Below, in pieces: positions 1 through 33,794 of a stretch of 33,794 nucleotides of DNA; positions within the stretch are counted from its first letter, which is position 1, and each line of letters opens with the position of its first letter. The notes beneath the pieces were generated by a model, which worked only from the letters and a program-made list of their open reading frames with translations, had not been told where the DNA came from and did not search any database. Source of the DNA: Candidatus Methanoperedenaceae archaeon (GTDB taxonomy: Archaea; Halobacteriota; Methanosarcinia; Methanosarcinales; Methanoperedenaceae); the NCBI GenBank assembly GCA_014859785.1, contig JACUTP010000001.1, forward strand, positions 1 through 33,794, given 5' to 3'. A program made the translations under genes and the position numbers.

Positions 1-310
1 AAAGATGTTTGCCTGTACATCATTCCTCACTTTTGACGAGGTATACTATAAAGTAAACAAAGTCAAAGGAACTGACATAGCTGTGACAAACCTTGAGGCT
101 TTTTTAACTATACCGAATCTTAGATTTATTAACGTTGATGACAGCGTGGTATGGAAAGCTCTTGAACTTATCAGGAAATACAAGATTCTTCCACGTGATG
201 CCATACATGCAGCGTCTGCCTATATTGCAGGAGCCGAAATAATATATTCACAGGATAGTGATTTTGATAATATAACCGGTTTAAAGAGAATATGGAAATC
301 CCAACCCTAA
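1..310 (+). CDS. PIN-domain (VapC-like) nuclease, probably 5'-truncated by the window edge
   Basis: ORF 5..310. C-terminal PIN-type motifs 'LPRDAIHAASA' and 'IIYSQDSDFD'. Only ~100 aa, and the N-terminal acidic strand of a PIN fold is missing, so the true start is probably upstream of position 1. Confidence 0.65.
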   Translation, partial: KMFACTSFLTFDEVYYKVNKVKGTDIAVTNLEAFLTIPNLRFINVDDSVVWKALELIRKYKILPRDAIHAASAYIAGAEIIYSQDSDFDNITGLKRIWKSQP

Positions 311-488
311 ACCCGCATCGAAACTCCCTTAAGCTCCCGTACACCCAGCGCCGTATCAGCGAGAGGAAACGGAATATCCTGCTTGTGGTAAGGTCTGTTT
401 TTGATATGTGATGCGAAATTATATATTACTTTACGCCGTATGTAAACCCCGGATTTTAACCGTACACAAAGGACTGGTATTTTAAAAC

Positions 489-1223
489 ATGGAACCATCA
501 GCACCATCGCTTTTATTGGTCTTCCTGGCAGGCATAGTAACAATACTGAAACCGTGCTGCCTTCCCTTAGTCCCGGTAGTGTTCTCAGGCTCAGCAGGGC
601 ACAAGTACCGCCCGCTTGCAATTGTTTCCGGCTTAACACTCAGTTTTACCTCGATGGGTGTGCTGGTGTCTGCCTTCGGTGCAACTTTCGGGGCTTTTGC
701 GGACAGTTTGCGCAGTATAGCCATCCTGTTCATCATAGGCATGGGCGCAGTGCTCTTTGACGAAGACATTAATATGGAATTCATAAAATTATCAGGCGCA
801 ATAACGCAGGGCATCAGGCAGCGCTTTAGCTCGGTGAGCGGGTACTCGAATTTAAATATGCCTGACGGAGGAATTGCAGGAGGTTTTTTCCTCGGCATGT
901 CCCTTGGCATACTCTGGATTCCATGCGTCGGACCGATTCTTGGTGCAGTGCTTGCATACGTCGCTTCTGTTGGTAATGTTCCCTACGGGGCATGGATGTT
1001 GTTTGTTTATTCCGTGGGTATGAGTCTCCCCATGCTGTCCATAGCCTATTATGGTAAGAAAGCCACGGGCAGGTATAAGTGGTTTGTGATACACGGACCA
1101 GTGCTGAAAAAACTTTCAGGACTTATGCTTATAGTGATTGGTGTTATGCTGCTTTTCAATATAGACAAGCTGATAATACAGGTGCTTTCCCCCTATTTCC
1201 CGACCACGGTTTATGGGATATAA
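489..1223 (+). CDS. ccdA: CcdA/DsbD-family cytochrome c biogenesis thiol-disulfide transporter (paralogue 1)
   Basis: 244 aa, hydrophobic throughout. Carries the two CcdA-type Cys motifs 'LKPCCLPLVP' and 'WIPCVGPILG'. Shares long identical runs with the ORF at 5907..6635. Confidence 0.85.
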   Translation: MEPSAPSLLLVFLAGIVTILKPCCLPLVPVVFSGSAGHKYRPLAIVSGLTLSFTSMGVLVSAFGATFGAFADSLRSIAILFIIGMGAVLFDEDINMEFIKLSGAITQGIRQRFSSVSGYSNLNMPDGGIAGGFFLGMSLGILWIPCVGPILGAVLAYVASVGNVPYGAWMLFVYSVGMSLPMLSIAYYGKKATGRYKWFVIHGPVLKKLSGLMLIVIGVMLLFNIDKLIIQVLSPYFPTTVYGI

Positions 1224-1364
1224 GACCCGATTATGCAGCTTCCTGTCACAGCAGGCGCAGGTGATGATAGAAGAGTTATGACAAATGGTAAGCAGGATTT
1301 ATGCGGGTGTGTATTACCACCTAATCCGGATGATAGTATGACAAACAGGATGAGCAGGACAGCG

Positions 1365-1518
1365 TATCAAGAAAGCCTTCAGCAAAATTATCAACACCGA
1401 ACTGATACGAACTTAAAACTAACTCACTGAGTTCGTTTCAGTTCGTCCTAGTTCGCTGTTTTTATCGCATGCCTCATTTTTCGGGGCTATGAAAATGCGT
1501 TTATAATTTCCTATGCGT
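1365..1518 (+). repeat. Copy A of a ~155-nt module (vapC 3'-end remnant + hairpin/T-tract + TATA-bearing 28-mer); inverted partner at 10885-11044
   Basis: Hand alignment to the reverse complement of 10885-11044. Core 1395-1482 versus 10927-11014 differs at 3 of 88 positions, with one 6-nt indel further on. Confidence 0.85.
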
Positions 1519-1629
1519 TGAAAAAACATCCTGCCAATCCCCGGTCAAATCTTCACAGGCATTTCACCAACTAAGTTTTCCTGCCACTTTTATGCAGATG
1601 CCTGCACGTTTGAGGTAACCCCGTTATTA

Positions 1630-3924
1630 TTATAATCTGCCTTTTGGTTTTGATTTCACAGCCATAATCATGATTATTCCAACAGCGAATAATATGATGC
1701 CAATCCATGCAAGGTTTATGGTAGGGATAATTTTTAGGGTCATGGGAAGAGTGCCGCCGCTTATGCCCTGGAAAATGACGTACACATCACCGCCCAGTAA
1801 AGCAAGTGACGGGTCAATCATAGGGAATGTCCCGCTTCCGCCTTTGCCTTCAAGGTATTCAGCTACACCACTTCCGATTTTCTTGCCGTTCTGGTAAACT
1901 TCAAGCTGGACGCTCTGGACCCGGTATGTGCCTGATGTGGTAAACTCATCAACAGCAATCGGGCTAAGAACCGGTTTATCAAAACCAGGCAGTGTAAAGA
2001 TACTTCCGGTAACAGTCAGTCCCAGGTCGTCAGGCAGGGTTATAATCTCGCTCGGGAAAACAACCCCCATACTTCCGGAGTTATCGGTCAGTTCCACAAG
2101 AGTCCCGTGTCCTTCAATTGGGTTTAAGCCGGTAACCTTTCCGCTTATTGTTACGGTTTTCCCCTCAAGAGATGACGGGTCAGCAAGGACTTCTGCTATT
2201 GCGGTTCCCGGATAAGTTGCCTCTACAAGGCTCCTGGTAGAATAATCAACAACCTTAATACCGTAACCATCACCCACATTTAGTAATATGCCTTTTGCTT
2301 CAAGCGGCATATTTATCCTTTCGTTTGTATAGGTGAAATTAGAACTAATAATTGCGCCAATAAGTGTGAAAATCACTGCTATATGAACTATTGCTATACC
2401 TATCCCCTTCATCTTTACCCGCATGTTGCTGATATTCATGTAACCCGAAAAGTACTGGTATATTGCTGCCGTAGCATATATCAGGGACGGGAAGATGGAT
2501 ATGACCGAGATGGAGCCTATCAGTTTATATATTGGCGGTTCACTTACCCAGAACGGGCTGTTGTGGTCGAGCACATAAAAAGTATCTGTCCGCAGGAACA
2601 TGGTTATTATTGAGAGACCTGCCACAATAAACAGGGTTTTTTTCTGTGCTTCCTTTTTTGATTCCTTATAATTCAAACAGAACCCGAGCGCCAGCAGCAG
2701 CAGGATTGTGAATGGATAGCTCCATAAGTTGAAGAAATTCTTGGTGTCAGAGGCTACGTTTACTTTAATGCCCTGCGTGATCTGGATAAATGCCGGATAG
2801 GATATTCCCCAGAAGGAGATGAACGCCAGTATAACGAATATAAGCAGGGTTATATAGAAAATGTTTGTCTTGTTCCAGATTCCTTTATCCTCTTCTACTT
2901 TATCAGGCTCTTCAAGATACCGCCTCATGCCAAGGACAAGAGATACCAGGCTGATGATGAAGATTAAGCTTAGCAGCAGTGAGCCTGTGGTAGCCTCCCC
3001 GAAAGCATGGACTGAATTGAAAAGCCCGCTTCTGACAACAATGGCAGCATATATTATTAAAATGAAAGTAACTGCAGCCAGTATGGGTGCAGCTACTGAG
3101 AATGTGGTTTTATTCTTCCTGTGAAGAGCTGCTGCATGCATAAAAGCTGTGAGTGTGAGCCATGGAATAAACGAGGCAGTTTCAACAGGATCCCATGCCC
3201 AGAACCCGCCCCAGCCAAGAACGACATATGCCCAGACGCCTCCCACAGCTATTCCCATTCCCAGGATTAACCAGGTAAAACGTGCCCACTGCCTGCCCAG
3301 TTCCTCCCAGCCATCCTCTTTTGTGAGCAAATACACAATAGCGGCTGCAAACGGTATGGTCATTGTTGCATAGCCTATAAACATGAGAGGCGGATGCACT
3401 ATCATCCAGAAGTTTATGAGAAGCGCATTCAGCCCGCTGCCGTCTGCCGGGACAAAACTAAGGGGAACCTCTGCCAGTTCGTAAATTGACTGGAAAGGTG
3501 TCTGGATAAGTGTAAGCACTATAAAATAGGCACCTATTACCAGGGTTATTATCTGGGTTCTCCTTGCCAGCGCAGTGGCGTGCTTCGTTGTCTTTGCAAG
3601 CCATGCCGCTGATAGGAAAATCATCCATACCCAGAGCAAATACGTACCGGGCTGACCTGCCCATGTGCCTGATATTTTATAGATTAAAGGCAAGTCTCGG
3701 CTGGAGTACTGCCAGACATACTCGTATGTGAAATCGCCGGTCACGAAATAATATGTAAGGAGAAGGTAGGCAAATGTGAGCAGTCCTGCCACACTTATTA
3801 TTGCAGGCGTAACCAGCTTATAAAAAATATTATTGTTTTTCAGGTCTTTCAGCAGCAGTCCCGCAATAGCGGCTACGCTTATCGCAAGACTGGCATAAAG
3901 TATTGTATTTCCGAGGGTTAACAT
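1630..3924 (-). CDS. ccmF: CcmF-type cytochrome c heme lyase/assembly protein with extended extracytoplasmic C-terminal region
   Basis: 764 aa polytopic protein. CcmF-like N-terminus 'DFTYEYVWQYSSRDLPLIYKISGTWAG' and WWD motif 'WGGFWAWDPVETASFIPW'. Four His in CcmF-like contexts: H176 'VHPP', H263 'FMHAA', H306 'SVHAFG', H514 'IVHIA'. Confidence 0.85.
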   Translation of the reverse strand: MLTLGNTILYASLAISVAAIAGLLLKDLKNNNIFYKLVTPAIISVAGLLTFAYLLLTYYFVTGDFTYEYVWQYSSRDLPLIYKISGTWAGQPGTYLLWVWMIFLSAAWLAKTTKHATALARRTQIITLVIGAYFIVLTLIQTPFQSIYELAEVPLSFVPADGSGLNALLINFWMIVHPPLMFIGYATMTIPFAAAIVYLLTKEDGWEELGRQWARFTWLILGMGIAVGGVWAYVVLGWGGFWAWDPVETASFIPWLTLTAFMHAAALHRKNKTTFSVAAPILAAVTFILIIYAAIVVRSGLFNSVHAFGEATTGSLLLSLIFIISLVSLVLGMRRYLEEPDKVEEDKGIWNKTNIFYITLLIFVILAFISFWGISYPAFIQITQGIKVNVASDTKNFFNLWSYPFTILLLLALGFCLNYKESKKEAQKKTLFIVAGLSIITMFLRTDTFYVLDHNSPFWVSEPPIYKLIGSISVISIFPSLIYATAAIYQYFSGYMNISNMRVKMKGIGIAIVHIAVIFTLIGAIISSNFTYTNERINMPLEAKGILLNVGDGYGIKVVDYSTRSLVEATYPGTAIAEVLADPSSLEGKTVTISGKVTGLNPIEGHGTLVELTDNSGSMGVVFPSEIITLPDDLGLTVTGSIFTLPGFDKPVLSPIAVDEFTTSGTYRVQSVQLEVYQNGKKIGSGVAEYLEGKGGSGTFPMIDPSLALLGGDVYVIFQGISGGTLPMTLKIIPTINLAWIGIILFAVGIIMIMAVKSKPKGRL

Positions 3925-3925
3925 A

Positions 3926-4399
3926 TTATTTACTCCTTACCTGGTCCCTGACCTTTGTGACTATGGGAAGGAAATAGTTCGCATCCACAGCACCGGGCAC
4001 CCTTTCAAGTACGTTATCATTCCCATCGAGGAAAAGCACATAAGGTGGATAGCTCACGCCATATTTACGCGCAACGTCCCGGTCGATATCCAGGTCCATT
4101 GCCACGAGAACATAATCTGTTTCCAGTATCTCTTTTACCTGCGGATTACCAAGGGTATCAGACTGGAATCTTGCACAGTACTGGCACCATATAGCCCAGA
4201 AGTACACTACAACAGGCTTGTTTTCCTGCTGGGCCTTCAGCAATGAGTCATCAAGTGAACGTGACCACGTAAGACCGCCAAGGTAACTGCTGTTTGTATC
4301 ACTTAACTTGAATTGCGAAAGGGAAATATAATACGTTTCATATGCTATGGATATTATCAATATCAGCACAAATATCGATATAAGTTTCTTGGTTTTCAT
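3926..4399 (-). CDS. Membrane-anchored thioredoxin-like protein (ResA/CcmG/DsbE-like)
   Basis: 157 aa with an N-terminal hydrophobic anchor and thioredoxin-fold motif 'VVVYFWAIWCQYCARF' (WCxxC). Its stop lies 1 nt before the ccmF start. Confidence 0.8.
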   Translation of the reverse strand: MKTKKLISIFVLILIISIAYETYYISLSQFKLSDTNSSYLGGLTWSRSLDDSLLKAQQENKPVVVYFWAIWCQYCARFQSDTLGNPQVKEILETDYVLVAMDLDIDRDVARKYGVSYPPYVLFLDGNDNVLERVPGAVDANYFLPIVTKVRDQVRSK

Positions 4400-4517
4400 C
4401 TGGTGTTTCCTTATAGATTTGCCCTAAATATAAGTATATTGGGTTTGTGTTTTGCAGTCTGGTTTTTTTTATTTTATTTTGTGTAAGTATATACTTTACG
4501 ATAAGTGTAAATGGGAT

Positions 4518-5900
4518 TCATATTATTGGAAGTGTCAGGATTTTAAAGCCGATGATGAGGTAAACAACTGCCGCAAAATCCACGGCAATTATGCCCTGCA
4601 GTATTTCTTTCCTGTTCCGGGAACGTCTTTTACTAATAAGGTATCCTGCCCATATGGTAAAAAGGAACCCCAGTGTCAGGAATACAAGCTGGAGCTGGTT
4701 TATGGTCTCAAAGTTTATGGCAAATCCCCATACCTTCCCGAAAAGAGCTCCGGTTTCTGCTGTTATGAAAAAAATTCCCTTCAGCAGGCGGAAAGTATTC
4801 TCGGCAAGGTAAACCGAAAGACTGAGCGGGATAAACGCATATGATAATTCTATGAATTTATTTTTTGGTTGCGTTCCATGGAAAGATGCCCTTGCTGAAA
4901 CGTACATTAAACCGATAGCTCCCAGTGTTATTAGTGCAAATATGATAATAGCCCACATATTCCGCCAGTAAAGTTGAAGGAAGGTTATAGAATCTATTGG
5001 AAGCGTTGATCTTACAAAACCTATTATGGTATTCCTGAACTCGAACCGCTCCATTCCCATAACGAACAGGAAAATGACAATCATACCGTGGATTAAATAC
5101 GCCTCTGGAAGGTATTTTTTCCTGGAATGAATTATATCAGCACCCGGAATCCTGGGACTTAACCTGATATTTTCTTTTGAACAGGATTTTACACATTCCA
5201 TGCACATGATACATGTGTTATTTCGTTCCATTGTCTGGGGAAACTCATCCACAGGGCATGGTTTTCCCGCTTCTGCTCCTACAATGCATTCTTTTATATC
5301 ATGGTCGTGGCAGGTTTTCCTTGACTTGCAGCGAAGTTCTATTGCCGAGAGCATGGAAAATATCCCGAGCACGAGCCCGATCGGGCAGATGTAGCGGCAG
5401 AAACTCCGTTTTTCATAGACAATTCCCATAACAACAGCGAGTGCTGTGAAAAACAGCAGAAGGTAGGCTGTGCTTACCGGGTTTCTCGTGAACATGAAAA
5501 GATGGCGTTCTGCCGCGAATATGAACAGGAACAGAACTACGGCTATCCAGAGGTTGCGGTACTTTTCAGGATATTTTTTATTGAAACTGAATACTGACTG
5601 CACCCAGTCACCAACCGCACCTATCGGGCAGGCAAAACACCACAGCCTCCCGAAAAGTATAACAGTAAATGCAAGAAGGGGATGCCAGAGATCCCATATC
5701 ATTGTAGTGGCAAAAGGATTGCTTCCTGGAAAGCGCAGGTCGGGTTCACTTTTCAGCCCGGAATATACTATAACCGATAGGAAGATTAAGATAATGAAGT
5801 TTAAAGAAGGCTTGAAAAACCTGTTTTTTACAAGGTTCCTGAAAAAGTAAACATCGAGCAGGTCGGGTTTTCCACTATTCTCCGGTATGTTCCTGTCCAT
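4518..5900 (-). CDS. NapH/MauN-like integral-membrane 4Fe-4S polyferredoxin
   Basis: 460 aa with many hydrophobic segments. Two CX3CP motifs ('WCFACPIG', 'FCRYICPIG') plus a ferredoxin-type 'CIMCMECVKSC'. Further TM segments follow C-terminally. Confidence 0.75.
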   Translation of the reverse strand: MDRNIPENSGKPDLLDVYFFRNLVKNRFFKPSLNFIILIFLSVIVYSGLKSEPDLRFPGSNPFATTMIWDLWHPLLAFTVILFGRLWCFACPIGAVGDWVQSVFSFNKKYPEKYRNLWIAVVLFLFIFAAERHLFMFTRNPVSTAYLLLFFTALAVVMGIVYEKRSFCRYICPIGLVLGIFSMLSAIELRCKSRKTCHDHDIKECIVGAEAGKPCPVDEFPQTMERNNTCIMCMECVKSCSKENIRLSPRIPGADIIHSRKKYLPEAYLIHGMIVIFLFVMGMERFEFRNTIIGFVRSTLPIDSITFLQLYWRNMWAIIIFALITLGAIGLMYVSARASFHGTQPKNKFIELSYAFIPLSLSVYLAENTFRLLKGIFFITAETGALFGKVWGFAINFETINQLQLVFLTLGFLFTIWAGYLISKRRSRNRKEILQGIIAVDFAAVVYLIIGFKILTLPII

Positions 5901-5906
5901 ATGACC

Positions 5907-6635
5907 TCAGATTAAAGGCGGGAAATATGGCAAAAGTTTTGCCTGCAGGTATTTATCCACTCCAAAGAGCAGCATAAGCCCGACAAGTATCAACATCAAT
6001 CCTGAGAGTTTCTTGAAGAAATGCCCTCTTTTCACGAACCAGCTAACATGTCCTGAGACCTTTTTTCCAGAATATGCTATTATGAGCATCGGAATGCTTA
6101 CACCCATTGAGTATACAACCAGGAGTGATGCGGGATAAAGGAGGCTTCCCGAGCCTGCCGAACTCTCAGCCACAAATGCAAGTACGGCGCCAAGTATCGG
6201 ACCAACGCAGGGAATCCATATAATGCCAAGTGACATGCCAAGGAATAGCCCGCCAAAGAGTCCACCCTGCGGTACTTTTGCTTCAAGATTTCCGAGAAAT
6301 GGAAGGTTCTGCCGCGCAAAATTCATTGTGGAACTTGTTATCTTAACATATTCATTGTTTATATCGTCATCAAACAGGACAGCACCCATTCCTATGATGA
6401 AAAAGATTGAAAACCAGCGAAGGTAATCGGTTACGTAACCAAAAGATGCCACTGCTGATATGAGTATTCCCATCAGCGTGAAAGTAATACTCATTCCGGT
6501 AACGATGGCAATCGGGCGCAGCCTGCTCCCCACAGAACCTGAGAGTATCGCAGGCAGGATGGGGAGTACGCACGGCGTAACCACTGTTGCCAGTCCTGCG
6601 ATGAAAACCATTATTGCAGATGGGGTCGTGGGCAT
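5907..6635 (-). CDS. ccdA: CcdA/DsbD-family cytochrome c biogenesis thiol-disulfide transporter (paralogue 2)
   Basis: 242 aa with motifs 'VTPCVLPILP' and 'WIPCVGPILG'. Lies 6 nt upstream of the NapH-like gene. Confidence 0.85.
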   Translation of the reverse strand: MPTTPSAIMVFIAGLATVVTPCVLPILPAILSGSVGSRLRPIAIVTGMSITFTLMGILISAVASFGYVTDYLRWFSIFFIIGMGAVLFDDDINNEYVKITSSTMNFARQNLPFLGNLEAKVPQGGLFGGLFLGMSLGIIWIPCVGPILGAVLAFVAESSAGSGSLLYPASLLVVYSMGVSIPMLIIAYSGKKVSGHVSWFVKRGHFFKKLSGLMLILVGLMLLFGVDKYLQAKLLPYFPPLI

Positions 6636-6690
6636 TTACTGATTGCATCATACAAGCGGCATTTATATTATCTTTTTCTGAATGAAACGC

Positions 6691-7230
6691 CTAATTCAAG
6701 CCAACGTATTTCTGGGTCCTTATCGCATCCCCAACACACATATCACAAAATGAACCATGGTCGTCAAAAACGCCTCCATCAGAAATAAAGCAATCTCTTA
6801 TTGATTTGTGGGGCTTTCCTTCTGATACTACGCTTCCATGACTACCACAGCCGCAGTAACAGGGTATCTGTTCAAGTACTTCAGGGTGTTCGATTGCGAA
6901 CTTGTAGGCATTCAGGGTAATTGGGTTTGTGTATGCGTAACTTGGAAGTTTCAGGTTCTCATCAACCAGCCTTGGTGCCAGTACCGGGATATACCCCTCT
7001 CTAACAGGACCGGTGCTTGTCGGCGACAGCCCTCTTCCAACGTACTGTTCATCAATTGCCCTCCTTGCTTCTGCAAGCGTCATAACTTCGCCTGATGCTC
7101 CCTGACCCGATGGAGCGCCTGAGTTAACAACATACGCAATTCCTGCAATCAATACCAGACCGATTACTACAAGAAGTGTTGTGTTACTTCCTTTCTTTTT
7201 CCGCATTTTTTGTGTTCTTATTTTTGCCAT
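6691..7230 (-). CDS. PCYCGC-motif membrane-anchored protein (function unknown, Cys-rich, probably metal- or redox-related)
   Basis: 179 aa. Basic N-terminus followed by a TM anchor, a literal 'IPCYCGCGSHG' motif, and a downstream 'SFCDMC'. Confidence 0.7.
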   Translation of the reverse strand: MAKIRTQKMRKKKGSNTTLLVVIGLVLIAGIAYVVNSGAPSGQGASGEVMTLAEARRAIDEQYVGRGLSPTSTGPVREGYIPVLAPRLVDENLKLPSYAYTNPITLNAYKFAIEHPEVLEQIPCYCGCGSHGSVVSEGKPHKSIRDCFISDGGVFDDHGSFCDMCVGDAIRTQKYVGLN

Positions 7231-7248
7231 TTATTATTAACCTCTTTC

Positions 7249-7701
7249 CTATACTATTTCGTCCATTCTCATGATAAATGATTCTGTATCAATGTATCCT
7301 GGTATCCTGCTGATCTCTGTGCCGTTGGGATAGAGGAAAACGGATGCTGGAGTGCCCCTTATCCTGAAATCCCTTGTTTCTTCTTTCTGAGTGTTAACAT
7401 CAATTGAAACAATAACGAAATCCTGGTTCAGCTTTGATACGGCGGTATTGTTGTTGAATGTTTCTTCTTCGAATTGCTTACACCAGCCGCAGGATTCCGA
7501 CCTGAAATAAACAAATACCGGCTTATCCTGTGCGGCTGCTGATTCCATCGCTTCCCCCAGGTATGTGCCAAATGTCAGTTTGTATAAGGTTAATGTTCCC
7601 CCACTTTTTGTCTCGTCCAGGTAACTGAGTTTTGGTTCTATATCAAGGCATCCTGAGAGCAGGATGAACAGGATAAGGGACAGTAGTACCAGTTTTTTCA
7701 A
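7249..7701 (-). CDS. Thioredoxin-fold lipoprotein
   Basis: 150 aa with a TTG start (no in-frame ATG near the N-terminus). Lipobox-like 'LLSGC' and 'VFVYFRSESCGWCKQF' CxxC motif. Confidence 0.75.
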   Translation of the reverse strand: MKKLVLLSLILFILLSGCLDIEPKLSYLDETKSGGTLTLYKLTFGTYLGEAMESAAAQDKPVFVYFRSESCGWCKQFEEETFNNNTAVSKLNQDFVIVSIDVNTQKEETRDFRIRGTPASVFLYPNGTEISRIPGYIDTESFIMRMDEIV

Positions 7702-7819
7702 TTTGGATCAGCTTTACATTATGTGTAAAATGATATAAGGGTTGTGGTGAAGCGGGTTAGTTTAAAGTCACTTTTATGTTTAAATTGTCTGCATTTTAGA
7801 TTTATGAACTTGAATAAGT

Positions 7820-8605
7820 TTATTTTTCAAGGCAAATAACTTCCTTATTTAATGAAGAGCAGATTGGAACTAAATGCGGGTCTTTAGTAAGAATAGGCAT
7901 TTCAAGCGGTGCATCTATTGATATGATGATATCACCCAACATAACACAATCATGATTTTCTATTTCTTTATTTTGTATGATTTTTACCAATGATAGACAT
8001 ATTTTATCTACATCATTTTCTTTCTCAATTGGATGTATCACATTATATACATTCTCTAAAACACTCCTCTCTATACTATTATGAAATTTTTCACATCCTC
8101 CACACCCCACTTTAAATAAAAACCCTTCTTTGTACTTTTTTGGTTTAATATAAATTTTATCACATTTAATGACGCTATCAATGAAGGTGACATTTTCTTT
8201 AAATTTAGATTCTAAGCCAAATGTTATTAAAATACGAAGTTTTTGAATAATACTCCTTTCACTTTTATTAGGAAATCCCAGAACTTTCAAAATAGTTATC
8301 CAATTAGCTGCCTGCCTTTTATATTGGGGATTCTCCGTCATATTGTTAATTCTTCTATAAGCCATGCCCAAATCATTGTTATTATCGAGTAATAAGTAAT
8401 AAAGAGAAACACAATCTTTAATTAATGTTCTTTTGAATTCAAGTATACTGAATTTACTTGCATGAAATTTTTTTGTTTTAGATAATTTATAATATTCGGA
8501 TTGCTTTCCATCTAGTTTTTTAAATAATATATTGGTATCAACAAAAATATCCTTCGTACTAAGCGAATGGATTTTATCAATCTTCATATAATTGTGATAT
8601 ACCAT
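7820..8605 (-). CDS. PIN-like nuclease with a large internal insertion (island ORF3)
   Basis: 261 aa. 'KDIFVDTNILF' (D23), 'SILEFKR' (E56), 'MLGDIIISIDAP' (D225/D231) and 'ILTKDPHL' (D242) match the order and context of PIN acidic residues. The insert contains 'GCGGCE'. Low GC. Overlaps the upstream ORF by 29 nt. An alternative start is M7 at 8587. Confidence 0.6.
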   Translation of the reverse strand: MVYHNYMKIDKIHSLSTKDIFVDTNILFKKLDGKQSEYYKLSKTKKFHASKFSILEFKRTLIKDCVSLYYLLLDNNNDLGMAYRRINNMTENPQYKRQAANWITILKVLGFPNKSERSIIQKLRILITFGLESKFKENVTFIDSVIKCDKIYIKPKKYKEGFLFKVGCGGCEKFHNSIERSVLENVYNVIHPIEKENDVDKICLSLVKIIQNKEIENHDCVMLGDIIISIDAPLEMPILTKDPHLVPICSSLNKEVICLEK

Positions 8606-9158
8606 CTAATGAACCCATTGGGTCAAGACCACAATTTACAATTTCATAAAAAATGGTTTCAGTATCATCTTCTGAAATATCGCCACCCTTTATAACATCT
8701 AATATTTTTTCTAAAACATCTATTTGTGGTTTTTGAATATCCTCGACATGTAGATTTTCGATAGAGGTTTCTAACAAGGAAACTAAATTATTCTTTTCAT
8801 CATTTTCTTGAATTAAATCCCAATATTTATTGATGTAATCTGAAAAATCTAATTTGAATTGATGAAGTGTAATTTGTTTATCTACTATACTATCTAAATT
8901 TAAGTACAATTCATTAAGAGACCGCCTCATCTTAGTGATAAAAACATCCTCAAAAGTGTCCAACTTCTTTGGTTTATTTATGTGAGTATATTCCGACTTA
9001 ATATTAATTGGATGGTTTGGTGAATAAACACTACGTTCCCCAATTAAACGCATCTTGCGTGCCCCAACTAAACGCATATGATCTTGCATCGATGGATGTT
9101 GTCCAGATATATAATCGATGTTAAAAGGACTTCTTTCAATTTGAATATTCGCAAACAT
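8577..9158 (-). CDS. Hypothetical protein (island ORF2), no recognised family
   Basis: 193 aa ORF with an ATG preceded by AGGAGA 4 nt upstream. Lies 12 nt after the ORF1 stop. Acidic C-terminal half. Contains an in-frame 24-nt tandem duplication (MRLVGARK/MRLIGERS). Confidence 0.7.
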   Translation of the reverse strand: MFANIQIERSPFNIDYISGQHPSMQDHMRLVGARKMRLIGERSVYSPNHPINIKSEYTHINKPKKLDTFEDVFITKMRRSLNELYLNLDSIVDKQITLHQFKLDFSDYINKYWDLIQENDEKNNLVSLLETSIENLHVEDIQKPQIDVLEKILDVIKGGDISEDDTETIFYEIVNCGLDPMGSLDGISQLYED

Positions 9159-9170
9159 TTTATCTCCTAT

Positions 9171-9800
9171 TTATCTATGTTTTAATGTTTCGATTTCTTC
9201 CAAATGCTTTTTAATTTTATTCAATTGTTCAATAACATTATTTATATCGTAAATATCACATTCCATTATGAAAGTTTCTGTTTTATCCATATTCGGCGCA
9301 TCTGAGAATGGATGACGCAGTCGAAACCTCAATTGTGCAACAGATAAATGTTCTATATCTTCTATTAAAGAGTCATAGTATTTAGTTATAATTGACCAGT
9401 CAAACTTATCAATCAAATTAGTTTTATAGGTATTCTCTAATATAAATTTTTCACGAAGCTGTTTTGATATTAATTTTGTTTTGATTATTTTACATTTTTC
9501 TTTAAAATTAGAATAACCAATTTCATCTGTAAAATCTGATAGTTCCATGTCTCTTTTATTAAGGATGGTTTGAATTAACTCTAAAATACTTTCAATTGAT
9601 TTAACAAAATATTCTTCATCAAGCCCCGAAGACATTAAGAGGTCGTGTCGCATATCACCATCAACTTTAAAACCTATTTGACCTGCATTGAAATAAAAAT
9701 TGCCACCATTCTTTTTTAACAAAGTTTCAACAATATTTACAATTTGATAAAAGCTCTCCATTTCTTCAAAATCCTCACTGTTTTTAATGTTGTTTGCCAT
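9171..9800 (-). CDS. Hypothetical protein (island ORF1), no recognised family
   Basis: The ATG at 9800 is preceded by GAGGTG with 6-nt spacing. The open frame extends to a TTG at 9923, so the maximal ORF is 9171..9923 (250 aa). Lys/Glu-rich and helical-looking. Low GC. Confidence 0.65.
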   Translation of the reverse strand: MANNIKNSEDFEEMESFYQIVNIVETLLKKNGGNFYFNAGQIGFKVDGDMRHDLLMSSGLDEEYFVKSIESILELIQTILNKRDMELSDFTDEIGYSNFKEKCKIIKTKLISKQLREKFILENTYKTNLIDKFDWSIITKYYDSLIEDIEHLSVAQLRFRLRHPFSDAPNMDKTETFIMECDIYDINNVIEQLNKIKKHLEEIETLKHR

Positions 9801-9934
9801 ATCAAACACCTCTATCTGCTTCCCAATATATCCGCGGTACTCGTTCCTTTTTATGACACATCCTTTTGATTTAAACTCCTTGATATACTTGTCTATCCTA
9901 TTTCCTCGTCCTTGAAACAGCAAGCCTTATTATC

Positions 9935-10126
9935 CTATTCCTTCACTGTTGTCCTGCCTGCGTGTTTTGCAAGCACAATAGCCTCGCGCGCAATCTCAAG
10001 CCCTATTTCCTCAAGTACATTTGAAAGCACCATTCCCGCGCCTTCACTAACCCTTCCTGCTCCTGCATTCCTTATAATCCACTCAACCGGTGCAAGCGTT
10101 AAAACCGGTGGTACTGTTCCTGTCAT
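9935..10126 (-). CDS. Archaeal HMf-type histone, C-terminally short (no helix alpha3)
   Basis: 63 aa. 'LAPVEWIIRNAGAGRVSEGA' and 'LEEIGLEIAREAIVLAKHAGRTTVK' match histone-fold alpha1, alpha2 and the L2 loop. The ORF ends at a TAG right after 'TVKE'. Confidence 0.85.
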   Translation of the reverse strand: MTGTVPPVLTLAPVEWIIRNAGAGRVSEGAGMVLSNVLEEIGLEIAREAIVLAKHAGRTTVKE

Positions 10127-10259
10127 ATATTATTATCTCTAAATTAAAATTTACAGTACCTTAAATTAGGAAAAAGGAATATATAAGGATTTTCAGCCTG
10201 AAAACTCATTTCAGGAAGTGTTGTTCATAATTCAAGATGCAGAAAGACTGCGCTGCAAC

Positions 10260-10577
10260 CTATAATCGCGCTCTTGCGCTGGCTGCTATGAAATCACGGA
10301 TAAGTTTTGCACCCAAGACTGACGTATTGCCTGAATCGTAAACAGGTGCAATCTCGAAAAGGTCAAACCCGACTATATCAGGAGCAAGGCATGCAATAAC
10401 TTCCCTAACATCCCGCGGCGTAATCCCGTATGGCTCTGGCGTTCCTACGGCAAGCGCAAACGCAGGGTCAATGGCATCAATATCAATAGAAAGGTAAACA
10501 TGACCCTTAATAACTTTGCGGATTTCCTTAATAATATTTTCTATACCTGAATTAAATACATCCCCTACTGAGAACAC
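10260..10577 (-). pseudogene. speB: Agmatinase/arginase-family (ureohydrolase) C-terminal fragment
   Basis: The 105-aa frame carries 'VYLSIDIDAIDPAFALAVGTPEPYGITPRDV' and 'IVGFDLFEIAPVYD', typical of the C-terminal half of agmatinases. The N-terminal half with the other Mn ligands is absent, and only a GTG opens the frame. Confidence 0.7.
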
Positions 10578-10581
10578 TTTA

Positions 10582-10695
10582 ATCCGGTTTTCCCTGACTT
10601 ACAGTGCCGACTTCAGGACACTCTGCGACATAAATATCGTCCTCTTTGTGGATAAGTGCCGTGAAAGTGCTGTTTTCATAATAAGGATAAATGTA
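10582..10695 (-). pseudogene. HicB/UPF0150-like antitoxin N-terminal fragment (start lost by frameshift, C-terminus deleted)
   Basis: The open frame reads 'YENSTFTALIHKEDDIYVAECPEVGTVSQGKPD*', resembling HicB-family N-termini. It has no start codon. An ATGAAAAC start lies one base out of frame, next to an A-run. Confidence 0.45.
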
Positions 10696-10884
10696 TTATT
10701 TACGACTTAAAATTCGTATAGCTACTGGCTTTGTGTTGTATTCAGAAATTATTTTCTTTTTTCCGTGCTGAGAATCTCTTGCTGGATATCCTGTTTCATA
10801 AAAAATCCGGATATTTCCAGTTCATTGATGATGTCCTGGAGTTCACTTTTATCTTTTATCGGGCAAAGTTCATACCCTTTCTTG

Positions 10885-11044
10885 ACGTATAGGAAAGTAT
10901 AAACGCATTTTCTTATCCCCTTGCTGGAAAAATGAGGCATGTGATAAAAACAGCGAACTAGGACGAACTGAAACGAACTCCGTGAGTTAGTTTTGAGTTC
11001 GTATCAGTTCGGTGCTAATAATTTTGCCGTAGGCTTTCTTGATA
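10885..11044 (-). repeat. Copy B of the ~155-nt module; overlaps the 3' end of the PIN gene 10987..11388
   Basis: Reverse complement aligns to 1365-1518 (core 85/88 identical). Contains hairpin arms 10964-10979 / 10996-11011 and the 28-mer at 10885-10912. Confidence 0.85.
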
Positions 11045-11388
11045 ATTCCGAGTGTTCCGGTTATTTTTACTTGCTCTTTTCTTGCTATTTTCCTGGCATC
11101 AAGGTCATCAAGCGCGGCTATCCAGCCATGTTTTTTGGCAAGTGTAATTACTCCAGCTTCGCCATGGTGTATCGTTTTAAGGTATTTTCCAAAATCATGG
11201 ACTTTTTCTACCGAAATCCATCCGCCGTTTTTATCGATGGCGGAAATCATATCTGGAAATATTATATCTTTTTTTACTGTATGCGGGATTATTGCTTTAA
11301 TTCCAAGACGGATAAGAATTTCCTGTAACAGTGGAAGCCTTTTAGTTTCTGAAAAAGCACTTAATACTCTTGTATCCAGTACAATCAA
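10987..11388 (-). CDS. PIN-domain toxin (DUF3368-type)
   Basis: 133 aa. 'MIVLDTRVL' supplies the N-terminal Asp strand. 'HHGEAGVITLAKKHGWIAALDDLDARKIA...ITGTLGIIKKA' is typical of DUF3368 PIN proteins. Overlaps the upstream antitoxin gene by 4 nt. Confidence 0.8.
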   Translation of the reverse strand: MIVLDTRVLSAFSETKRLPLLQEILIRLGIKAIIPHTVKKDIIFPDMISAIDKNGGWISVEKVHDFGKYLKTIHHGEAGVITLAKKHGWIAALDDLDARKIARKEQVKITGTLGIIKKAYGKIISTELIRTQN

Positions 11389-11705
11389 TTCTTGCTCCCC
11401 TTTAAGGTCTCGTAATCTTCTTTTAACTCTTTGACACCTTCAACACCGAGCTTCGGGTTAATGCCTCTTTCAATTAGAAGCTTTTTCATACTTGTTGAAG
11501 AGAGACCTGCGATACTGGCAGCTTTGGCAATGGAAACTTTTTCCTGCCTGTAAAGTTCGATAGCTATCTCTTTCTCATCATAATCCTTGAGGAGATGGCG
11601 CAGACCGTCGCGTACTGCTTCGGCTATGTTGCTGTAAAGCCCTGCGTCTATCAGGCGCTTTATTCTTGTTTCAAATTCCCCTTTGATTTCAACGGTAGTT
11701 GGCAT
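11385..11705 (-). CDS. UPF0175-family antitoxin
   Basis: 106 aa. 'AIELYRQEKVSIAKAASIAGLSSTSMKKLLIERGINP' matches the UPF0175 helix-turn-helix-like core. 'AEAVRDGLRHLL' is RHH-like. This family is the usual partner of DUF3368 PIN toxins. Confidence 0.75.
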   Translation of the reverse strand: MPTTVEIKGEFETRIKRLIDAGLYSNIAEAVRDGLRHLLKDYDEKEIAIELYRQEKVSIAKAASIAGLSSTSMKKLLIERGINPKLGVEGVKELKEDYETLKGSKN

Positions 11706-21790: not shown

Positions 21791-24241
21791 ATGCTCCACG
21801 TCATCATCCACCCCCATAAATCAAATCTCATCATCCTTCCCATAAAAGACAATGCAAAAGAGCCAGTTTTTTACGGAATCCTTACATTGAAGGAAACACC
21901 ACTGGGTGCACGTCCAGCAAGGTTTCGTATCAGGCGGGGGGATAAGGAGGAACTGCGGGCACCCAATGAACTGATAGAACTCCTTCGGCTTGCCGATAAG
22001 ATTCTTTTTGCTGAAGGAAATGAGAAATCAGAAGAAGGGTTCAAGCAAATTCTTGAGGCTTACCAGCTTGATTACGGTTACACAAACCCGTGCCGCATCT
22101 GCCTTGTTGAGGGGAAATTCACACCAATTGATAAGAATTCCATCAGTTACCACAATGAAAAAATATGCATTGTGTGTGCAAAAAGCGAACTGGAAAAAGA
22201 GGCAAGATTCCATAAGCTCGGAGCCATGGGACTTGACCGGCTTTACAGGATATTGCTCAAAACAAAAGACCTTGACAGGGTTATCGGGATGCTGACCCCT
22301 GAAAACATTGATGCCGGGCTTACAAGGTTTGATACTCTAAATGCAAGCAAAGTTGATAAGAAAATCATGGTAAAAGACCTGCCTGTTCATGATAAGTTAA
22401 AAGACATACTTCTTGGCGGGCTTGAGGAACTGCTGCCTGTCCAGGCGCTTTCTGTGGAAGCCGGACTGATTGACGGTAAAAACCAGTTAATCGTCTCGGC
22501 AACTGCAACCGGAAAGACGCTTATCGGGGAACTTGCAGGCATTAATAACATATTAAACGGCAGGGGGAAAATGCTGTTCCTCGTCCCGCTTGTCGCACTT
22601 GCAAACCAGAAGTATGAGCAGTTCACGAAACGGTATTCATCCATCGCAGCAACGTCTTTGAGGGTCGGCACAAGCAGGGTGGGATATAAAACAAAAGGAA
22701 TCATGACCGCTCTTTCCTCAGGGATTATAGTTGGAACATACGAGGGAATTGATTTTATCATAAGGTCCGGGAAGGGAGGGCAGCTCGGCAATATCGGGAC
22801 CGTGGTGATTGATGAGGTGCACATGCTGGAAGACGATGAACGGGGGCACAGGCTTGACGGGCTTATTGCGCGCCTTAAATCCACATCACCAGACGCACAG
22901 TTCATATACCTGTCAGCAACTGTCGGGAAACCCGAATGGCTTGCTGAAAAGCTTGGCGCGGGACTGATAGTTTTCGAGGAGCGCCCTGTTCCGATAGACA
23001 GGCATCTTGTTTTCACCCCTGAATTCACAAAACGGCGCCTGATTGAGAAACTGGCGCGAAAAGAATATGAAACAACCAGTAAAAAGGGGTTCAGAGGGCA
23101 GACCATAGTTTTTACCAACTCGCGCCGCAACTGCCATACGATTGCTGAGGGGCTGGGAATCAGGGCAATGCCGTACCATGCAGGACTGTCGTATAACGAG
23201 CGCAAGAATGTCGAAACGCGCTTTGGCAACGGTGAGCTTCCTGTTGTGGTCACGACAGCAGCACTTGCAGCAGGTGTGGATTTTCCTGCCTCGCAGGTGA
23301 TATTCGAATCCCTGGCTATGGGGATTGAGTGGCTGACCGTGAGGGAATTCCAGCAGATGCTCGGGCGGGCGGGACGTCCTGATTACCATGACAGGGGAAT
23401 CGTGTACCTGCTGGCTGAGCCTGATAAGAGGTTCGGGAAAGGTGAGTCAGAGGACGAGATTGCATTTCGGCTTTTGAGGGGTGAGTTTGAGCATTTCGGG
23501 GTGGATTATGATGAAGATAAACAACTTGAGGAGACACTGTCCAATATCGTTGTTGCAAGGACGCTTCCTGATATTCGGAAATTAAACAAACTGCTTCTTG
23601 GTGCTGGTGATATTGGTTACCTGCTGGATAAACTTGTGGAGAACGGGTTTATTGAAAAAACAGGCACAGGATACACGCCTTCGGAACTCGGATGGATTGC
23701 AGCATCGCATTTTTTGAGTGTTGGGCAGATGTTCCTTATTAAGAAAGCGGTGCTTAAAAACCGCCCGCCGCTTGATATCGTGACAGAACTTGAAACGCTG
23801 GATTCTGTGTATTTCAGCCATGCGGCACGGCTCGGCGAGGCGCTTGGTACTGACATTCCGACACGGGTTTTCGGGGCAGGGCTTGATATTGTGTTCTCGG
23901 CTGAAGGGTTGTCAAGGCTGCCCGGGAACCTGCAAAAGATTGCGCTCGGGTTTGCTACTGAGTTTCTTGCATGTAACTGCAAGGATGCGCCGTATTGCGG
24001 GTGCCCTGAGAGGAAGTTCTCGGAAAGGGTGGTAGGGATGTGCGCTGAGGGTCTGTCTGTTGAGGGAATTGCAGGTGAGCTTACGAAAAGTTACGGGGTG
24101 TATGCGTATGGCGGGGATTTGCTGAATTACCTTGACGGGGCAGCAAGGGCTCTTGAGGCTGTGGAGTTGATTGCTGGTGTTTTCGGGAAGGAAGAGTTGC
24201 GGGAGAGGGCGCGGGAGTTGAGAAGGAGGATGGAGGGGTGA
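21791..24241 (+). CDS. Ski2-like SF2 helicase with N-terminal zinc-finger region and C-terminal Cys cluster (ASH-Ski2/DUF5814-like)
   Basis: SF2 motifs 'ATATGKTLIG', 'VIDEVHMLED', 'LSATVG' and 'QMLGRAGRPDYH'. N-terminal 'CRICL...CIVCA' and C-terminal 'CNCKDAPYCGCPERK'. The open frame reaches back to the ATG at 21710 inside the 30-nt repeat. I prefer M28 (21791), which lies ~30 nt after an AT-rich TATA-like stretch. Confidence 0.8.
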   Translation: MLHVIIHPHKSNLIILPIKDNAKEPVFYGILTLKETPLGARPARFRIRRGDKEELRAPNELIELLRLADKILFAEGNEKSEEGFKQILEAYQLDYGYTNPCRICLVEGKFTPIDKNSISYHNEKICIVCAKSELEKEARFHKLGAMGLDRLYRILLKTKDLDRVIGMLTPENIDAGLTRFDTLNASKVDKKIMVKDLPVHDKLKDILLGGLEELLPVQALSVEAGLIDGKNQLIVSATATGKTLIGELAGINNILNGRGKMLFLVPLVALANQKYEQFTKRYSSIAATSLRVGTSRVGYKTKGIMTALSSGIIVGTYEGIDFIIRSGKGGQLGNIGTVVIDEVHMLEDDERGHRLDGLIARLKSTSPDAQFIYLSATVGKPEWLAEKLGAGLIVFEERPVPIDRHLVFTPEFTKRRLIEKLARKEYETTSKKGFRGQTIVFTNSRRNCHTIAEGLGIRAMPYHAGLSYNERKNVETRFGNGELPVVVTTAALAAGVDFPASQVIFESLAMGIEWLTVREFQQMLGRAGRPDYHDRGIVYLLAEPDKRFGKGESEDEIAFRLLRGEFEHFGVDYDEDKQLEETLSNIVVARTLPDIRKLNKLLLGAGDIGYLLDKLVENGFIEKTGTGYTPSELGWIAASHFLSVGQMFLIKKAVLKNRPPLDIVTELETLDSVYFSHAARLGEALGTDIPTRVFGAGLDIVFSAEGLSRLPGNLQKIALGFATEFLACNCKDAPYCGCPERKFSERVVGMCAEGLSVEGIAGELTKSYGVYAYGGDLLNYLDGAARALEAVELIAGVFGKEELRERARELRRRMEG

Positions 24242-24372
24242 GTTAAATAAGAAACAATGGTGACAGAACTACACGCACCCTTTTTGATACATGACCAGAA
24301 CTCCAGGAGTCTTTACTTTTTCCGGGAAATTCTCTTATACCTTTGCAGTATAATATAATGCTGTGGGAATGT

Positions 24373-25515
24373 ATGTTTTTCAAGCAATTTCGAAACGAAG
24401 GCTGTCTGTCTTACATCATAGCTGATGAGATTACGAAAGAATGTGCAGTTATAGACCCTGCAAAAGAAACAGGACAGTACCTGGAGGCACTGGAAAATTA
24501 CGGTTCTATCAAGTATATTATCGATACGCATTCCCATGCCGACCATGTTACAGGTGCAGGAGAACTCTCTATAAGTACAGGCGGAAAAGTGGTGATGAGC
24601 AGACATGTGGATAAACAGCGCGCTGCCAGTGAGGGAAAAGGTGATGAAATCGGTATCGGCGATATACTCAGGGAAAATTCATCTGTTGCTGTGGCAAAAA
24701 AAGTTAGTGAGGGGGATGAACTTGAAATCGGGAACATTTCTTTAGAAGTTATCGAGACTGCCGGACATACCCTTGACTCGATGTGCCTTTTAATGGAATA
24801 CAGGGTATTTTCCGGTGACACACTTATGATAGGGCTCTGCGGGCGTACTGATTTGCCGGGAGGCAGCACTGAAATGATGTATAACAGTATCTTTGAGAAG
24901 CTCCACACCCTTGAAGACGACCTTCTGGTTTATCCTGCACACGATTATAAAGGCAACATCAACAGTTCTGTCGGTTATGAGAAAATGAATAACCCGTTCT
25001 TTAAGCAAAGGAAACCCGGGGAATTTGTCGAATTCGTAAAAAAGGCATTTCCACCACCCAAAGGTTCTGGTATGCAGTGTGGTGTCATGGATACAAAGGC
25101 TGCCATTCAGGAACCTGGTGCTACAGGACCCTTAATGAAAGATATGTGTGTGGCTATGGAGAAGTTTTTCAGGGACTTGCCCCGTGACTGGAAAAACTGG
25201 AATGTGATGGATGTCAGGGAACTTAAGAAAAAACTGGATGCAGGAGAGAATGTCTTTGTGCTTGATGTCCGAACGCCAGGTGAATATAAGGAGTATCATA
25301 TCAAGGGTGCCAGGAATATTCCCGTAAAAGAAATACCCGGGCGGATAAACGAGCTTCCGAAAGACAGGGACGCAGACATTGTAACTCAATGCGATAGCGG
25401 TTTTCGGAGCGCACATGCAGCGATATTCCTTAAAGCCTACGGATACACAAATGTAAAGAACCTTGAGCATGGTATTCGCAAATGGCTCGAAGAAGGGTAT
25501 GATGTGGAGAGGTAA
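24373..25515 (+). CDS. ETHE1-like metallo-beta-lactamase-fold (persulfide dioxygenase-type) protein fused to a C-terminal rhodanese domain
   Basis: 'HSHADHVTG' (HxHxDH), 'GDTLMIGLCGRTDLPGGS' and 'YPAHDYKG' resemble ETHE1. The C-terminal rhodanese has active loop 'QCDSGFRS'. The ORF opens at 24343, but 'MFFKQF' at 24373 matches typical N-termini of this family. Confidence 0.8.
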   Translation: MFFKQFRNEGCLSYIIADEITKECAVIDPAKETGQYLEALENYGSIKYIIDTHSHADHVTGAGELSISTGGKVVMSRHVDKQRAASEGKGDEIGIGDILRENSSVAVAKKVSEGDELEIGNISLEVIETAGHTLDSMCLLMEYRVFSGDTLMIGLCGRTDLPGGSTEMMYNSIFEKLHTLEDDLLVYPAHDYKGNINSSVGYEKMNNPFFKQRKPGEFVEFVKKAFPPPKGSGMQCGVMDTKAAIQEPGATGPLMKDMCVAMEKFFRDLPRDWKNWNVMDVRELKKKLDAGENVFVLDVRTPGEYKEYHIKGARNIPVKEIPGRINELPKDRDADIVTQCDSGFRSAHAAIFLKAYGYTNVKNLEHGIRKWLEEGYDVER

Positions 25516-25544
25516 TAGCTGTAATTAACAGTTTTCTATGAAAA

Positions 25545-26441
25545 CTACCACCCGCGCTTTTGCAGCAGCTCATTTTCACCCAGCGTGCTGATTGAAATAC
25601 CTTTCATTGGCTCACCCAGACCCTTTGAAATCTCGGCAAGCTTTGCAGCATCTTCGTAATTATTCACAGCTTCAACAATTGCAGATGCCATCTTTTCAGG
25701 ATTGTCGGACTTGAAAATACCCGAACCCACAAACACACCGTCAACACCCATTCGCATCATGAGTGCAGCGTCTGCCGGGGTTGCAATACCGCCTGCTGCA
25801 AAATTCACAACCGGAAGCCTCTGGAGTTTCGCCGTTTCCCTGACAAGCTCAATTGGTGCTTCAATCTGGCGCGCAAATGCTACCAGTTCATCTGAATCCT
25901 TGCCCTTAAGTTCCCTTATTGCACCCATTATATGGCGCATGTGCCTGACAGCTTCTTTCACGTCACCTGTCCCGGCTTCTCCTTTTGTCCTTATCATGGC
26001 AGCACCCTCGTTAATTCGCCTGAGAGCCTCGCCAAGGTCGCGTGCTCCGCACACGAAAGGAATGGTAAATTTCGTCTTGTCGATATGGTACTTTTCATCA
26101 GCCGGCGTGAGTACTTCTGACTCGTCGACCATGTCAACCCCAAGTGCCTGGAGGATATCAGCCTCTACAAAATGACCTATTCTTGCTTTTGCCATTACGG
26201 GAATGGTCACAGAATCAATAATCGCCAAAATAACTGCCGGGTCTGCCATTCTTGCTACCCCGCCTGCTTTCCTGATATCCGCAGGAACCATATGTAATGC
26301 CATTACCGCAACAGCGCCGGCATTTTCAGCTATGTGAGCCTCTTCAGGTGTGGTAACGTCCATAATTACACCGCCTTTTTGCATCTTTGCAAAACCCCGC
26401 TTTAACAGTTCAGTGCCATGTCTTAAATTTTCAAGCTTCAT
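25545..26441 (-). CDS. pdxS: Pyridoxal 5'-phosphate synthase lyase subunit PdxS
   Basis: 298 aa with 'GGVIMDV', '[10 protein letters not shown]', '[12 protein letters not shown]' and '[16 protein letters not shown]', all typical of PdxS/SNZ. Confidence 0.95.
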
Positions 26442-27067
26442 AACCTTCCCTTCATGATAATAAAGGATATTATACTTTGTCTTTATGGGCTTTATCTTTA
26501 TCCGTAGGAAAGACGCATTCCTAAATGGTTTATAAATAATGGAAATATTGGGCGTATTTGAGTCAACCAGAATACATAAAGAAGAAATCCAATTAGGTTT
26601 TTGACTTAAGAATCTATCTGTTTTTTAGCCATAACCTGATTTAATAAAAAGCGCGTCAGATATCGAGACTTTTTAATTTCTTCTGGTTTCCATCAAAAAA
26701 CCAAAAAATACAGTGCACTAAACGCTAAAATTCCAACGTTTCCTCATCCATCTCCAACTAATGGCACAAACATTATATCTATTACTGTTATATTAGTATT
26801 TTTATGTAATACAATGACGCAAAAAAATGAGGTTGCCAGTAAAAAATAAAAAGTCTCACTTTTTAAATATTAATGTAAATCAAAACAATATCCTGCAACG
26901 GGACTATGCCAAACTAAAGCCATATACTGGAAATCCGCACCTGCGGTTTGATGAGGAGGTAGTGGCGAGAGTCACTTCTTTAGTCCTGGATGGCAGGAGG
27001 CTAGTGCACCTGTTAAGGCTGGTTAATAAACTCGCATGGGTTCAAGTGCGCTTTATCCTGTTAAATA

Positions 27068-27892: not shown

Positions 27893-27942
27893 ATTGACTC
27901 CTTAATTATACAGTAATAATATTGGAATCATCCTTATTAATA

Positions 27943-33738: not shown

Positions 33739-33766
33739 AATGAACTAACAATAATTTAGTTTTTAA

Positions 33767-33794
33767 ACGTATAGGAAAGTATAAACGCATTTTC
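33767..33794 (-). repeat. Copy C of the TATA-bearing 28-mer (cut by the window end)
   Basis: Identical over all 28 nt to 10885-10912. The TATA-like TTTATAC (33779-33785, minus strand) starts 47 nt upstream of the ATG at 33738. Confidence 0.85.

Follow-up and report, generated by a model that had tools for sequence, protein, structure and literature searches.

A probable young histone pseudogene at the native histone site of a Methanoperedenaceae genome with an intact, divergent copy on another contig

Results

The window, meaning the whole stretch of DNA analyzed here, comprises 33,794 nt of contig JACUTP010000001.1 (hereafter C214) from the Candidatus Methanoperedenaceae archaeon assembly GCA_014859785.1. 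On its minus strand a short histone-like open reading frame (ORF) lies between a low-GC island and the remnant of an agmatinase gene (Table 1), and the G+C content drops from ~48% over the histone gene to 23-33% between ~7700 and 9800. The other genes of the window are ordinary and uninterrupted, including those for TiaS (422 aa), Lhr (940 aa), PEP synthase (762 aa), PdxS and CcmF, which indicates that the contig is chromosomal and that the assembly is not generally error-ridden.

An initial annotation, made from the letters alone, had described a 63-codon minus-strand histone ORF that ends in ...KHAGRTTVKE and a TAG codon, after which the codons read D-N-K-A-C-C-F-K-D-E-E-I-G up to a further TAG at 9893-9895. 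This description is accurate, and the assignment to the histones is borne out by significant matches to both PF00808 (E 1.8e-8; 34.9 bits against a cut-off of 21.4; profile positions 5-57 of 65) and the NCBIfam profile archaea_histone, NF043032 (E 3e-20; 72.3 bits against a cut-off of 50; positions 1-54 of 60). By sequence, the ORF belongs to the HMf-type archaeal histone family. It does not encode a complete histone fold: the stop falls at the equivalent of HMfB A57 and the codons for helix α3 are out of frame. Three structural hallmarks of the family are missing, namely α3, the R10 equivalent and the D59/L62 interface. The start codon is retained and the upstream region is conserved with that of genome G051 (see below), and the gene may still be transcribed to give a 63-aa peptide, or a 77-aa peptide in sister strains.

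Table 1. Features at the histone site, in window coordinates.
Feature	Position	Strand	Basis
Low-GC block (~23-33% G+C) whose three ORFs belong to no known family	7753..9848	-	Insert in the comparison with G051, separating thioredoxin gene and histone
Ancestral 3' flank of the histone gene	9849..9897	-	Aligns with the corresponding flank at loci of the C15/L004/L006 type
Relic α3 codons, out of frame, up to the ancestral stop (9898-9900)	9898..9934	-	Comparison with G051
Extra A at ~9930-9931 and substitution at 9928	9928..9931	-	DNA alignment and direct comparison with G051
Premature TAG from GAG (Glu64), strain-specific	9935..9937	-	Orthologues and sister strains
Probable histone pseudogene, residual 63 codons and TAG	9935..10126	-	ORF and family profiles; spans α1-L1-α2-L2
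Histone upstream (promoter) region and agmatinase-histone spacer	10127..10259	-	Continuous alignment with G051, ~90% identity overall
Agmatinase (arginase-family) 3' fragment, ~110 of 286 codons, preceded by an in-frame stop	10260..10602	-	Pfam PF00491, positions 177-277 of 280
Non-homologous DNA at the agmatinase break; contains an N-terminal HicB-like piece that lacks a usable frame	10603..10884	-	Frame translations
Dispersed MITE-like repeat copy, ~160 nt	10885..11044	.	Other copies at 1365-1518, 33760-33794 and many contig ends

The lesions were read against the intact 75-aa gene that occupies the same chromosomal site on contig C90 of G051, a genome of the same genus. The order in G051 is thioredoxin operon, histone (75 aa), agmatinase (286 aa), aIF5A (128 aa) and CBS, followed by genes like those on contig C79 of the window's genome (G000). 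Window positions 5-7752 are collinear with C90 12493-20073, and positions 9896-10602 align continuously to C90 20106-20809 with 90.4% identity; in G051 these two blocks are 32 nt apart. Relative to G051, the insert thus covers 7753-9895, and its edge lies at least 39 nt from the TAG and outside the ancestral gene. The initial annotation had placed the end of the gene 11 nt from the island edge, which was not borne out, as homology continues past the TAG and the ancestral stop to 9896 in the comparison with G051 and to ~9849 in the comparison with L004 and L006. Truncation of the gene by the low-GC block, also proposed there, was rejected because the α3 segment and the ancestral stop both lie inside the retained DNA.

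The genome has one copy of the island, and G051 has none. Searches with Pfam, PADLOC and NCBIfam gave no significant match for its three ORFs (~209/250, 193 and 261 aa); the 193-aa ORF has a marginal, sub-significant PADLOC match to Csn2 (E 0.0017). The island varies between strains: the contig L025 is only 93% identical, and its 193-aa ORF differs by in-frame indels (3, 22 and 8 nt). The TTG "start" (9923) of the 250-aa ORF is the out-of-frame histone tail, and the same peptide is found among the ORFs of G051, where the island is absent. The true start is likely to be the ATG at 9800, from which the 209-aa gene call on L025 begins.

Compared with the G051 gene, the window copy has four synonymous and three non-synonymous changes (P10T, R16W and E33V) in addition to the stop at codon 64 and an indel. 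Alignment of the orthologues, as suggested in the initial annotation, revealed GAG at the TAG position (G051, L003, L004, C15 and L006 in the DNA comparison) followed by an intact α3. The +1 insertion sits 5-6 nt downstream of the TAG, where GAT-ATC-AGG in G051 has become GAT-AAT-AAG-G in the window and the α3 frame is shifted; the TAG, the insertion and the substitution fall within ~10 nt. Past the indel and the substitution, the α3 codons and the ancestral stop are identical in the window and G051. The faint echo of α3 that had been noticed after the stop comes from the tail DNKACCFKDEEIG, which is the +1-shifted reading of EDIRLAVSRTRK. Judged from this comparison, the coding DNA for α3 is present but scrambled. 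Recoding by pyrrolysine insertion or stop read-through was considered and rejected, since ARAGORN detected neither a CUA tRNA (tRNA-Pyl) nor any other suppressor tRNA among the 40 tRNAs of the genome, and read-through would yield the scrambled tail rather than α3.

A search of a large protein collection returned 43 proteins, consisting of the 63-aa product of the window, a 41-aa fragment and 41 proteins of 71-90 aa; the named homologues come from Candidatus Methanoperedens. Examples are P0008 of Candidatus Methanoperedens nitroreducens, annotated as "histones H3 and H4", and the G051 orthologue. The expectation that an archaeal histone should continue into α3 holds throughout, as all 41 full-length homologues go on with EEDIRLAV.R..K; in the alignment, ...TTVKE is followed in every full-length homologue by EDIRLAV(A/S)R..K, which corresponds to helix α3. 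A PF00808 profile survey of 52 other species genomes from the family gave a histone match in 49, with exactly one match in 48 of these. The matches all span PF00808 positions 3-65 and lie in open frames of 75-85 codons without a stop. An internal stop occurs only in the window copy, whose score in the survey is also the lowest (36.5 bits versus 50-65). The histone is strictly single-copy in Methanoperedenaceae. No 63-aa orthologue was found in the 52 family genomes or among the 42 database homologues, and the gene at the same site in G051 is intact with 75 aa. The proposal that the ORF is a naturally α3-less paralogue from a short family is thereby refuted, because every other histone-bearing genome of the family has an uninterrupted gene.

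Independent assemblies revealed the order of the lesions. The protein cluster of the window product has a second member, P0044 (77 aa), which matches the window product residue for residue, T10, W16 and V33 included, but has Glu in place of the stop and then the same scrambled tail. P0044 is encoded on the Logan contigs L025 and L026 (from SRR22541073 and SRR22541069), which carry the frameshift and the three replacements of the window and differ from it by 2 nt over 10265-9935, one of them at 9937 (G versus T in the window, coding strand). A third Logan contig, L027 (SRR11917416), matches the window without a difference over 1001 nt (100% identity) and has the frameshift as well as the TAG, although it may stem from the same reads as the metagenome-assembled genome (MAG) of the window. 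The frameshift is therefore found in at least three assemblies from three runs (L025, L026 and L027), and the TAG in L027. The frameshift is real and is the older lesion, and the TAG arose later and is private to the strain of the window; because strains with GAG and the strain with TAG have the frameshift in common, α3 was lost before the stop arose. The nonsense mutation put forward in the initial annotation thus stands as a GAG-to-TAG change, but not as the primary lesion, given that the +1 insertion is also present in the GAG-bearing strains.

The three replacements P10T, R16W and E33V all map to the window branch, at columns that are invariant in every other aligned sequence. In HMfB, the dimer is anchored in the DNA minor groove by two arginines, R10 and R19, and the tetramer (dimer-dimer) interface is formed by the H49-D59 pair together with L46/L62 (PMC6136690). 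The equivalent of R10 is Trp16 in the ORF, a residue that is unique to the window lineage at this position, and R25 (the R19 equivalent) and H55 (the H49 equivalent) are kept. The equivalents of D59 and L62 fall past the stop and the frameshift. Three non-synonymous and three synonymous substitutions are counted on the window branch in 63 codons, compared with zero and nine between G051 and L023, which, with so few substitutions (Fisher p ~0.06), suggests relaxed selection on the window branch.

The rest of the ancestral cluster has fared no better. aIF5A and CBS are missing from the window site, only the 3' third of agmatinase is left, and no match to G051 was found beyond 10602. The junction at ~10602 between agmatinase and the HicB-like sequence (10260-10695) is a deletion scar at which the 5' part of agmatinase, aIF5A and CBS were lost.

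Several mobile or dispersed elements were also observed nearby. Further copies of the MITE-like repeat, 87-99% identical to one another, lie on contigs C196, C232, C141, C202 and others of G000, and those at contig ends are probably the cause of assembly breaks. The sister-strain contig L022 has an extra copy at its positions 5196-5356, corresponding to window ~24242-24246; this polymorphism implies that the element has apparently been mobile recently. An inversion between two inverted 155-nt modules was also considered but is not supported, as the modules are copies of this dispersed, multi-copy repeat and collinearity with G051 is preserved in the left part of the window. A toxin-antitoxin pair at 10987-11705 consists of a PIN-like toxin (133 aa), whose gene is overlapped by the repeat at its 3' end, and a UPF0175 antitoxin; the toxin matches the PADLOC candidate family PDC-S70 (E 3e-16) and has no Pfam match. 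Exact-protein look-up of the window thioredoxin, the UPF0175 antitoxin and a 312-aa protein returned no record.

The only other PF00808 match in the genome is an intact 75-aa histone at C15:3553-3780, on a contig of 3819 nt. C15 carries a complete cluster of CBS, aIF5A, agmatinase, a glutamate dehydrogenase (GDH) on the opposite strand, and the histone. A tblastn search with the G051 protein located aIF5A only on C15 in this 95.7%-complete genome, although a PF01287 profile search of the genome for aIF5A was negative. C15 is 99.6% identical to a contig of the MAG GCA_033549205.1, which also holds a contig 99.5-99.75% identical to window positions 22702-29441; contigs of both types are thus binned together in two independently built MAGs, and the run SRR22541069 yields both histone types. 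From this co-binning and the need for aIF5A, we infer that C15 and C214 belong to one chromosome.

A maximum-likelihood tree of the agmatinase 3' part and histone DNA has the topology (C15,(L003,(window,G051))), supported at 95/96 and 90/92. According to this tree, it is the window copy that is truly orthologous to the G051 locus, and the C15 cluster is either a xenologue or an old paralogue. A recent duplication within the genome as the source of the two copies was rejected, since C15 falls outside the pair of window and G051. Over agmatinase-aIF5A-CBS, C15 is 79% identical to G051, compared with 83-91% for other syntenic blocks.

Further differences were observed on C15. Between its histone and the window/G051 type, 11-14 non-synonymous and 8-9 synonymous substitutions are counted in 63 codons; the resulting dN/dS of ~0.4-0.6 is unusually high for a histone and may point to divergence of the replacement copy under adaptation or relaxed constraint. 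The opposite-strand GDH gene between agmatinase and histone (C15/L001, L003 and L004) is present in some members of the family and absent from others, and the agmatinase and histone matches are accordingly contiguous in some family genomes and ~1.1-1.5 kb apart in others. This is an old presence/absence polymorphism at the locus. A second dispersed repeat of ~115 nt (93-96% identical; C15:80-194, C79:8150-8263, C66:322-439 and C236:5455-5509) is located exactly at the break of synteny with G051, which separates the SpoIIM-like gene on C79 from CBS on C15.

Discussion

We consider it very probable that the 63-codon ORF is an ordinary, young pseudogene, the remnant of the native histone gene at its original site beside the thioredoxin/CcdA/CcmF operon. 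The decay took two steps: one extra base scrambled helix α3, and a GAG-to-TAG mutation in the strain of the window then cut the frame just upstream of the insertion. The remaining ancestral cluster at the site (agmatinase, aIF5A and CBS) is broken as well. Such decay could be tolerated because C15, with the only aIF5A and the only intact histone, would supply histone, agmatinase and aIF5A from a second, complete and divergent cluster. Any peptide still made from the ORF is most likely non-functional, as it would lack the α3 interface residues and carry Trp for the DNA-anchoring Arg.

Part of this account depends on C15 being a genuine part of the genome. If C15 had instead been co-binned from a different population, the decayed gene would still be real and its functional replacement would lie in unassembled sequence. 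C15 measures merely 3.8 kb and ends 40 nt past the histone, the flanks seen in L004 were not found in G000, and its divergence from G051 exceeds that of other syntenic blocks. Against this stand the recovery of both contig types at ≥99.5% identity in two independent MAGs, the presence of both histone types in the same run, a CheckM contamination of 0.27%, and the fact that a 95.7%-complete genome has its only aIF5A on this contig, which make co-binning unlikely. Were it true, the context would change, but the pseudogene call would be unaffected.

The product could also be a functional short variant, in which the α3-less 63-aa or 77-aa protein pairs with the C15 histone and caps or poisons the extension of the hypernucleosome. 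The intact start codon, upstream region and α1-L1-α2-L2 segment would fit such a role, as would the persistence of the frameshifted form across several samples, and C-terminally reduced archaeal histones have been noted and regulatory roles proposed for them (Henneman et al. 2018, PMC6136690). However, two successive disabling lesions have hit a single helix, the R10 equivalent has been replaced, the neighbouring genes from the ancestral cluster have plainly been destroyed, and orthologues of the same length are absent from the family genomes and the database homologues alike, so that a functional variant seems very unlikely. On that reading, the product would still be expressed from the intact promoter region and heterodimerise with the full-length C15 histone, a naturally occurring dominant-negative subunit or cap that restricts hypernucleosome growth and is kept as a population polymorphism. 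Least probable of all, and to our minds barely credible, is that the TAG, the extra base or both are consensus errors in an intact gene. The MAG is fragmented (269 contigs) and the lesions are tightly clustered, which could reflect a local error, but the frameshift recurs in contigs assembled independently from SRR22541073, SRR22541069 and SRR11917416, the Logan contig of SRR11917416 has the TAG too, no long homopolymer surrounds the insertion, and the other long genes of the window (TiaS, Lhr and PEP synthase) are uninterrupted.

Read as a pseudogene, the ORF has a practical consequence: it stands in protein databases as a histone-family protein and should be flagged, and it should be counted neither as a short histone variant nor as a second histone of the lineage. 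The locus is of modest interest for genome evolution, as a native histone-agmatinase-aIF5A cluster that has been superseded by a divergent cluster and caught in mid-decay, with the order of lesions readable from strain polymorphism (a shared frameshift and a private nonsense mutation). In a full-text literature search, no paper linked Methanoperedens to this relic locus; the papers on Methanoperedens histones concern Borg/plasmid elements.

The closest known relatives of the relic are the single-copy histones of Methanoperedenaceae (75-77 aa), to which it is 73-95% identical over residues 1-63 and with which it shares the site beside agmatinase (in G051 also the thioredoxin operon) and the upstream region. 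Those histones are intact, whereas the relic has a premature TAG, a +1 frameshift in α3 and three replacements of invariant residues. With HMfB of Methanothermus fervidus, the archetypal nucleosomal histone (69 aa), it shares the α1-L1-α2-L2 layout and the HAGR(K/T)T(I/V)K motif of L2, but it lacks α3 and the D59/L62 equivalents and has Trp at the R10 equivalent and Thr at the P4 equivalent. The C-terminally reduced histone of Lokiarchaeota GC14-75 is likewise a histone-fold ORF; its last residues probably form no α3, and it was considered as a candidate functional variant (Henneman et al. 2018, PMC6136690). Unlike in that reduced histone, the codons for α3 persist out of frame in the relic and the lesions can be defined from intact orthologues, which argues for decay and not for a variant family. 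The arrangement as a whole resembles displacement pseudogenes, in which a broken native copy also remains at the ancestral site while an intact, divergent copy that branches outside the native clade is found elsewhere. Pseudogenes left by gene displacement are well known, and the relic is therefore not a new kind of feature.
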